From NCBI GenBank assembly GCA_951406725.2, contig OX597815.1, forward strand, positions 196,602,001 to 196,666,000: 64,000 nucleotides of DNA, given 5' to 3'. The DNA comes from Octopus vulgaris (Eukaryota). A model generated the notes under the pieces. That model saw only the letters and a list, made by a program, of their open reading frames with translations, was not told the origin of the DNA and made no database searches. The translations under genes were made by a program, and so were the position numbers. Of the stretch, positions 17,159-19,766 are shown piece by piece (the first letter of the stretch is position 1; the number at the start of each line of letters is the position of its first letter).

Positions 17159-18883
17159 CTGATCAGAATTTGCAATGTAATATAATTAAAGATCTGATTT
17201 TCTTACATAATCATGTATCACTATTAGACAGCGATTTTATAGTTAACACTTTTAGCTATTCATTATGGCAAACGAGTTAAAAAGCAATTCTAAAATCATG
17301 AAACGTAAGATACGTTTCTAAGAAGAAGAAAAAGAACCTTAATATATCTTAAAATTATAAAAACTTTATTCCTGGAGAACATGCAAATCTAATAAATTTG
17401 TTTAGCCCTTGCTAAGCTTTGCTCGAGCAGCTTAACTATCTTTATGTATTTTGAGCAGGGTCTATTTAAAACCATGCTTATCCAATTGCCTATACATTTT
17501 TAAGCTGATAGGTGGGCTGAAAGGAACGTGTTCATGTCTGGAGTCCTAAGAGCTGCTCTTGATCTTTGACACATTAAGCACATGTTTGGTTAGTAAAATC
17601 AGTTATCATATCTAAACAAAATATAATCATGTTGTAATCAAATGTTTGATTTTAGCACAAATAACCCAATTTCAAAATCCCGAATTTTACCGATGTTTCG
17701 GTGCATTTGAAAGTGTAGTGTAAGTAATTTTATTGAAATTGTTTATGGGCGTATTTTCGGAATGCTTATGATGTTTCCTTTATTACCAAACGAAAATATT
17801 TATTATCATATGGATTCAAAGTTAAGGAAACTAACCTGCTCATATTAATATTTCCTCCAGTTTATGTGTAAACGTTTGTTTATAACCGGAATTCTGATTT
17901 ACCATAATAACTAAATACGACTTTTCTGATCTAATTCAGTTACGATTTCAATAAATCATTTTATATCCAAGCTGGACTGCAGAACGTATGCTACTAGAAT
18001 AACGTATATTCATGCATACATCCTTACATACACACACATATATGCAAAGAGGGAAAAAGAGAGAGAGATACATATATATACGCATATGTGTGTGTGTGTG
18101 TATGTGCGTGTTTGTGTGTTTGTATGTGTGTGTACATATATGTACAGCATTCTACGGTTATCTATTGATATGAGAGCTAATAAATAGACACTCATATAGA
18201 ATATACCGTGCGGTATAAAATTACGAACTATATACATATATATATATATGTGTGTGTATATGTGTGTGTGTGTGTGTGTGTCTTTGTATGTGTATATGTA
18301 TGCGTGTGTATATGATTGTGAGAATGTGATTATAAGACATGAAGTGTTTCTTATGAAATGCTTCCTCTAATTCAAAACAATATAGTGTTACAGTGGGTGG
18401 AAACCTTTGAGATCGAAAATATCACACAGTTACCATTTACGGAGCTATACACTGAACGTGGAGTAAATTACTGCAACATAACGCATCATTTATTCCTCTC
18501 GGTGTGTCAATGATACACAAAGGGCTTCCATCAAAATGCAGGTTAATGTGAAAAGAATCTGAGTTTCTAAACATTTGAATTGATCATAATTTTAGCTGAT
18601 GATTGATATACATACATACACGCGCACGTGCAAACACACTCACACCCTTATATGCATGTATACATATATATATATATATATACCTGGTAGTAAATAATAT
18701 TACTACCCTTCTTGTTTATATTCGCATATTATATGATGGATTGATTCGTAAAATTCCTCCCGGCATGCCCGATACTGCCGTGTGAGTTTTGCGTCTGCGC
18801 AGAGATTTGAAAAGTTAAGATCTGCTAGTAGTCGGGTTCAACACATGGTCCCACATCGCTGCAGACCTCGATTAAATTTAGGC

Positions 18884-18959
18884 GACTCGCTGATGAAGCT
18901 AGCCTTAGCAAACATATTCTGTGTTTTGCTAGAAAGAAGCAGAAACCGCGGTTCGAGTT
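18884..18959 (+). ncRNA. Type I hammerhead ribozyme, unit 1
   Basis: Stem I gactcg/cgagtt; core CTGATGA at 18890-18896; stem II gct...tagcaaa/tttgcta...agc; GAAA at 18942-18945; palindromic stem III ACCGCGGT; cleavage triplet GUU ending at 18953. Confidence 0.85.
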
Positions 18960-19337
18960 GTAAAAGTTATCGGTAAACGTTTTTGATTTTAACTCTCGAT
19001 AAATTCATCCCCTTTTTGTGTTCCCAGCACTCGGCATCTTAATTTAGGAGCCCTTAATTGTATTACTACATGAATAATATTTTTCTATATGAATAATATT
19101 TTTGTCTTATGACTAATTCGTCTTTTGTGCTGGGCACCTGGTAGTAAATAATATTACTACCCTTCTTGTTTATATTCGCATATTACATGATGGATTGATC
19201 CGTAAAATTCCTCCCGGCATGCCCGATACTGCCGTGTGAGTTTTGCGTCTGCGCAGAGATTTGAAAAGTTAAGATCTGCTAGTAGTCGGGTTCAACACAT
19301 GGTCCCACATCGCTGCAGACCTCGATTAAATTTAGGC

Positions 19338-19413
19338 GACTCGCTGATGAAGCTAGCCTTAGCAAACATATTCTGTGTTTTGCTAGAAAGAAGCAGAAAC
19401 CGCGGTTCGAGTT
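19338..19413 (+). ncRNA. Type I hammerhead ribozyme, unit 2
   Basis: Identical to 18884-18959, shifted by 454; predicted cleavage after 19407. Confidence 0.85.
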
Positions 19414-19766
19414 GTAAAAGTTATCGGTAAACGTTTTTGATTTTCACTCTCGATAAATTCATCCCCTTTTTGTGTTCCCAGCACTCGGCATCTTAATTTA
19501 GGAGCCCTTAATTGTATAACTACATGAATAATATTTTTCTATATGAATAATATTTTTGTCTTATGACTAATTCGTCTTTTGTGCTGGGCACCTGGTAGTA
19601 AATAATATTACTACCCTTCTTGTTTATATATATATATATATATATATATATATATATATATATATATATATATACATATATATATATATATATATATATA
19701 TATATATATATATATATATATATATATATATATATATATATATATATATATATATATATATATATA

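Follow-up and report, generated by a model that had tools for sequence, protein, structure and literature searches.

A hammerhead tandem in a TA tract of Octopus vulgaris as a young insertion of a probable retrozyme family, with a Penelope-type enzyme as its likely copier

Animal non-LTR retrozymes are tandems of type I hammerhead ribozymes with units of 150-450 bp, described as circular RNAs in coral, mussel and axolotl, and Penelope elements have been proposed as their partners (PMC7229834). A 2026 preprint considers retrozymes, of 51-972 bp, as derived from pseudo-LTRs and reports cleavage for only 1 of 9 Xenopus retrozyme dimers (bioRxiv 10.64898/2026.07.22.740005). With regard to the copying of animal retrozymes into DNA and to the role of the hammerhead in Penelope elements, a circular template has been proposed (PMC4209133, PMC7229834), while the sole in vitro study found hammerhead cleavage to be dispensable (PMC11167929). 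Comparisons with published systems refer throughout to the accessible parts of the cited sources.

In a window of 64,000 nts of Octopus vulgaris DNA (the whole stretch analysed), we examined an array at 18682-19629 which a first-pass annotation had described as a protein-free tandem of about 2.09 units of 454 bp, ~99% identical and lying in a TA tract. TRF gave a period of 454, 2.1 copies and 99% identity, with (TA)n tracts at both array ends. The two full units differed at 4 positions, none of them inside the hammerhead, and the longest stop-free frame in the array was 74 codons. The feature is real, and its description as a protein-free tandem was borne out. It comprises:

18682..19629, + strand: single retrozyme insertion of 2.09 head-to-tail 454-bp units, 5′-truncated at unit position 1 and ending 3′ at unit position 40, a fixed site of the family (TRF, unit comparison, site mapping)
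18660..18681, no strand: (TA)n target, left portion (sequence)
19625..19768, no strand: (TA)n target, right portion (TRF)
18883..18960, + strand: type I hammerhead 1 (sequence, covariation, palindrome survey); stem I 18883-18889/18954-18960, core CTGATGA 18890-18896, stem II base 18898-18900/18938-18940 capped by a long hairpin, GAAA 18942-18945, palindromic stem III 18945-18952, predicted cut after 18953
19337..19414, + strand: type I hammerhead 2, same sequence as hammerhead 1, predicted cut after 19407 (sequence)
18954..19407, + strand: predicted 454-nt monomer between both cuts, candidate circular RNA (sequence, folding)

Like metazoan non-LTR retrozymes (Cervera and de la Pena 2020, PMC7229834; Li, Clavereau and Pollet 2026), the element is a non-coding tandem of a few hundred bases with one type I hammerhead per unit; it is similarly low in GC, dispersed and coexistent with Penelope, and its palindromic stem III is fit for dimeric cleavage. 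Plant LTR retrozymes (PMC4918200) are also non-autonomous hammerhead elements, in their case with circular RNA intermediates, but carry type III hammerheads, LTRs, PBS/PPT and 4-bp duplications, in contrast to the type I hammerheads and plain tandems seen here. No target-site duplication was readable at the sites of the 454-bp family because the target is itself (TA)n. The unit had been thought longer than most animal ones and a candidate for a new system. Neither view stands: 454 nt is an ordinary length (the relatives have units of 439-459 bp) beside the published 150-450 bp and 51-972 bp, and the retrozyme class is already in print. The 454-bp family itself is apparently undescribed, none of the papers searched giving an account of it.

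The CTGATGA motif begins at 18890 and 19344 and GAAACCGCGGTT sets H17 at 18953 and 19407, which spaces the predicted cuts by exactly 454 nt. The core and the three stems are found in both copies, in agreement with the proposed single type I hammerhead per unit. The predicted monomer folded with z = -2.15, a value reached by 4 of 100 shuffles. Rfam, searched with a threshold as loose as E = 1, did not detect the hammerhead, a negative that does not outweigh the covariation presented below. Folding predictions count in part against a ribozyme: the predicted minimum differs from the active fold, which for the monomer lies at -19.1 kcal/mol against a local minimum of -22.3, i.e. 3.2 kcal/mol above it. 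As to the ‘A-A pair’ supposed to close stem II, the extra A ahead of G12 is conserved and the oldest subfamily seen has a single A on the 5′ side, so that pairing is one reading of two unpaired A's. An extra unpaired stem II nucleotide, a U3-A8 variant and a palindromic helix III are also features of the pseudo-LTR hammerheads of EN+ Penelope-like elements, while the long capping hairpin on stem II sets this family apart from metazoan non-LTR retrozymes.

We then turned to covariation. A pattern imposing the hammerhead core gave 46 haplotypes in the octopus genome, and 22 of them, picked as recurrent or divergent, were aligned. When these were placed on the hammerhead fold, pairing held in 97.9% of 524 cells, versus 28-43% when partners were slid. 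Double changes occurred in five pairs: a single one each in stems I and III, two in the stem II base, and C3-G8 of the core, which turns into U3-A8, a known natural hammerhead variant (PMC4209133). As 103 of 500 shuffles reached this number of double-change pairs, and as the 22 rows are related, the covariation is good but not formal. Stem III was self-complementary in 170 of 182 copies, with four recurrent sequences of 8-12 nt, in support of the palindrome first noticed and of selection on it. Its predicted dimer energies range from -13.6 to -16.0 kcal/mol and the lone hairpin is almost without stability, a pattern known from hammerheads that act as dimers (PMC4209133). Compensatory changes and palindrome retention together support the hammerhead fold at the level of sequence, and the ribozyme is retained through ~30% divergence. 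A block centred on TTGAAAA (18788-18821 and 19242-19275) is also well preserved across the 70-100% subfamilies, which is partly a selection effect of the search patterns. We considered TTGAAAA (unit 126-132) as a second, decayed U3-A8 hammerhead and rejected it: the oldest copies show no G12 and no clean stem I.

The unit is present in more than 100 TA microsatellites of its own genome (2.8 Gb in 227 contigs searched). Searching with the unit gave 1030 first-look candidates; the best 40 were scored and yielded 174 matches, the full-length ones 94-100% identical. A 3′ motif of the unit had 293 exact matches, and subfamilies ~91%, ~80% and ~70% identical to the unit were recovered. From the DNA searches and the listed 3′-motif matches on contigs C1-C4, 85 distinct sites were mapped, that at 18682-19629 included. 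They contain 137 runs, of which 77 end at unit 32-48 (T), 40 at 377-390 (S) and 20 elsewhere: 117 thus finish at two fixed 3′ points (~40-48 and ~383), with variable 5′ ends. Outward 3′ ends run into TA in 119 of 131 cases, and both fixed ends recur in the ~80% and ~70% subfamilies. In the window, they correspond to:

19594..19629, + strand: T site, hairpin and U-rich tract ending at the main family 3′ end, unit 40-48 (77/137 runs); internal copies at 18686-18729 and 19140-19183
19481..19518, + strand: S site, hairpin and U-rich tract at the second family 3′ end, unit 382-383, internal here (40/137 runs, folding); further copy at 19027-19064

We infer that T is a start of reverse transcription and S a second one. 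As ends are fixed at two sites, copies are not freely permuted, and the proposed check for circular permutation turned out negative over the 85 sites. Nor is there support for reasoning from the 40 bp repeated at the array ends and from a start unrelated to the cleavage site: these 40 bases are the fixed T end combined with a chance 5′ truncation at position 1.

The same mapping bears on whether the array arose trivially from one inserted unit, be it through tandem duplication in place, through expansion as a satellite or through an error of assembly that duplicated it. The 99% likeness of the units would agree with it, as would one array in which common variants are arranged in blocks; but the two units differ at four positions, tandems of 1-10 units that share these 3′ ends recur at many places across the genome, and contigs of public runs from other organisms cover the unit, with the unit end joined to the unit start in two of those runs. 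We regard such an origin as extremely unlikely. Four public runs guessed to be RNA gave short contigs only, which reveal no ends, strand, level or circles.

Among the 85 sites, 36 are single-armed, 44 two-armed and inverted and 5 complex; 30 of the 44 two-armed inserts combine an S end with a T end. In these features the family resembles EN+ Penelope-like elements, in which two start sites, 5′ truncation, an inverted 5′ arm and microsatellite targets are described (PMC4209133, PMC8557442, PMC11167929), and departs from the published accounts of metazoan retrozymes, by its two fixed 3′ ends and two-armed inserts, its expression and circles being putative. The two retrozyme ends are ~114 nt apart, versus the 30-40-bp tail of EN+ Penelope elements. 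At 14 of the 44 two-armed sites the arms stop at most 23 nt apart when the unit is viewed as a circle (a uniform distribution would give about 4-5 such sites), and they do so even where one arm is whole units longer. Pure snap-back as the source of every inverted arm was discarded: some S arms are longer than T arms, e.g. 1110 versus 787 nt.

Penelope elements likewise have fixed 3′ ends and 5′ truncation, together with inversions and TA targeting (PMC8557442), and retrozymes have been proposed as pseudo-LTR derivatives (bioRxiv 10.64898/2026.07.22.740005), so that the unit could be a pseudo-LTR belonging to some autonomous Penelope family and its copies truncated 3′ ends. Against this, copies followed in the 5′ direction continue into a further unit, into an arm of inverse orientation or into unique DNA without meeting any common sequence, and 62 of 137 runs are longer than one unit. 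None of 39 outward 5′ flanks was common to another or matched either Penelope ORF set. No Penelope ORF adjoined the unit in the 85 young sites, nor in 8, 29 and 14 further loci (some overlapping), within a sample made of the best 40 candidates per DNA search and probed with two Penelope ORF sets; Penelope matches in the 85 loci lay apart from the units, or tail-to-tail across one TA tract. At the sampled sites the retrozyme thus differs from EN+ Penelope-like elements, being without an RT plus GIY-YIG ORF between pseudo-LTRs, and we find the pseudo-LTR reading very unlikely. The adjacency check suggested by the first-pass annotation therefore gave no RT/GIY-YIG ORF joined to any sampled unit, even though the 3′ ends of the copies are fixed. 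A family whose likeness appeared limited to unit 107-140 was also tried as an autonomous parent and dismissed: the 14 places found all belong to an older ORF-less subfamily.

A candidate source of the enzyme lies in the same window:

50570..51490, - strand: Neptune-like Penelope copy, 5′-truncated, inverted and young, candidate enzyme source (endonuclease frame 50922-51317)

This very young element contains a C-terminal GIY-YIG-like frame. Its family gave 17,377 candidates, of which 150 were scored, at 97-100%. Long copies (L044, L045, L048, L049) carry an 811-aa frame with RT in which a cysteine finger precedes the endonuclease; this is the order of Neptune (PMC8557442), and judged by domain order the family is probably Neptune-like. 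In 4 of 8 long copies a 495-aa frame overlaps the RT-endonuclease frame in a different reading frame, as opposed to the single ORF usual for Penelope elements. Its terminal repeat carries a minimal U3-A8 hammerhead-like motif. The Neptune-like family has TA targets, inverted inserts with one end of each kind and 3′ ends ~142-149 and 184-192 nt past its own hammerhead-like motif (a spacing of ~45 nt): it shows the same insertion footprint as the retrozyme. Its ends are U-rich like S and T, while those of a second young family are A-rich. This second, Penelope-like family (L245-L249) has one 1310-1312-aa frame, an upstream minimal hammerhead-like motif and TA targets, so that two young Penelope families with open RT frames co-occur in the genome. 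The unit gave only short matches to the Neptune-like family (best E ~0.02) and none to the 1312-aa family at E up to 0.05. As neither young family resembles the unit significantly in sequence, the partner is named by footprint only, and the comparison covered these two among the Penelope families present. In vitro, the Poseidon protein cuts and extends both target strands and starts at two internal sites (PMC11167929), which explains the geometry of the inserts. The common footprint supports the suggested Penelope-type partner; that it is this particular Neptune-like family we judge an evenly balanced proposition.

Other repeats were noted on the way. An older, decayed hammerhead repeat of ~356 bp (2170 candidates; L163, L164, L251-L270) has the same stem III and flanking A's as the 454-bp unit and a short stem II in its place. 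In the window, a 549-aa open frame with RT (Pfam) at 32951-34600, between (AAT)n and (AAC)n tracts, ends in a C-terminal motif which we take to resemble the restriction-like endonuclease of R4/Dong-type elements, and 184-bp tandems (TRF) at 54811-55361 (3.0 copies) and 62281-62625 (1.9 copies) presumably resemble a SINE-type repeat.

We next considered whether the template was a circle or a line. At least one cut site is crossed by 86 of the 137 runs and at least two by 33, which implies ligated or uncut templates in most cases. Mismatches over the 46 diagnostic positions amounted to 24/2913 within runs and 32/2014 between arms, against 31% between sites; of the site-private variants, 24 were present in every covering unit and 4 in some only. 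Each insertion thus derives from one haplotype. An array of 4377 nt and ~10 units (L250, G000:C5), whose 3′ end meets TA close to the T site, contains 11 singleton variants and 4 common to mostly non-adjacent units. In a 5-unit array, three variants are common to adjacent units, which suggests later duplication or conversion. A circular template would account for single-haplotype arrays in a simple way, and a homogeneous linear master may do so too; read-through of the cut sites adds to the plausibility of the circle. Overall, we give a circular template for retrozyme copying an even chance.

The same element and enzyme could instead use an uncut linear multimer from tandem masters, with rare or late cutting and no circle. 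We consider this a real possibility that falls short of likely. In its favor, Poseidon insertion in vitro was unchanged by hammerhead mutants and no RNA reads ended at its cut (PMC11167929). On the other hand, long arrays would demand longer masters, diagnostic variants are almost never mixed within an insertion and private variants fill all units, and the ribozyme has been kept through ~30% divergence. The 5′ ends are relevant to the same question. We observed that 16 runs begin at unit 280-289, versus 3.1 expected, a peak unmatched in 2000 permutations. After subfamily indel correction, these ends lack 2-13 nt past the cut and none lack 0-1, so that no retrozyme 5′ end lies exactly at the cut, in line with a linear template. 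Counted once per site at unit 273-289, the excess was 13 versus 5.2 expected (P=0.003); it was non-significant in the unbiased subset of contigs C1-C4 (6 versus 3.2, P=0.10) and in the older (2 versus 1.5 expected) and oldest subfamilies (2 versus 1.5 over a wider interval), sets that were selected for full-length cover and have lower power in this test. Stem I is predicted to be extendable to unit position 287 and stop rates are also elevated at unit 321-360, within another long stem. Stalling at the extended stem I, as the linear reading has it, predicts the same position, and the pile-up past the cut is a lead only. At two sites, by contrast, the bases right after the cut were copied twice, as at a template end, which speaks against a linear multimer.

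Taken together, the array represents one young copy of a dispersed family without ORFs, probably a non-autonomous retrozyme for which a Penelope-type enzyme performs target-primed reverse transcription. In the scheme we propose, the tandem transcript would pair two palindromic stems III and self-cleave to the 454-nt monomer, to be circularised by a host ligase. The enzyme, Penelope-type and probably Neptune-like, would then nick both strands of the TA tract, with priming at the two internal U-rich sites, S lying ~110 nt and T ~220 nt downstream of the cut. The enzyme may circle the template to give up to ~10 units or stop early, sometimes near the cut 5′ end of unligated RNA, and two primers would produce the two-armed inserts. 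The mobile ORF-less hammerhead tandem and the Penelope-type partner of the original retrozyme interpretation are thereby kept; its terminal-redundancy argument and its novelty are given up. More tentatively, the insertion ends may be an in vivo genomic record of Neptune-type double priming, of rolling on ligated circles and of fall-off 2-13 nt from the cut in open RNA.

The octopus genome combines a young family, start sites mapped to a few bases and near-identical intact Penelope ORFs with the same footprint, hence linear, cut and circular templates become directly comparable. If the insertion ends are such a genomic record, hammerhead cleavage would take place inside the transposition cycle, contrary to the only in vitro result on Penelope, and this genome would supply a young element-enzyme pair for testing it.
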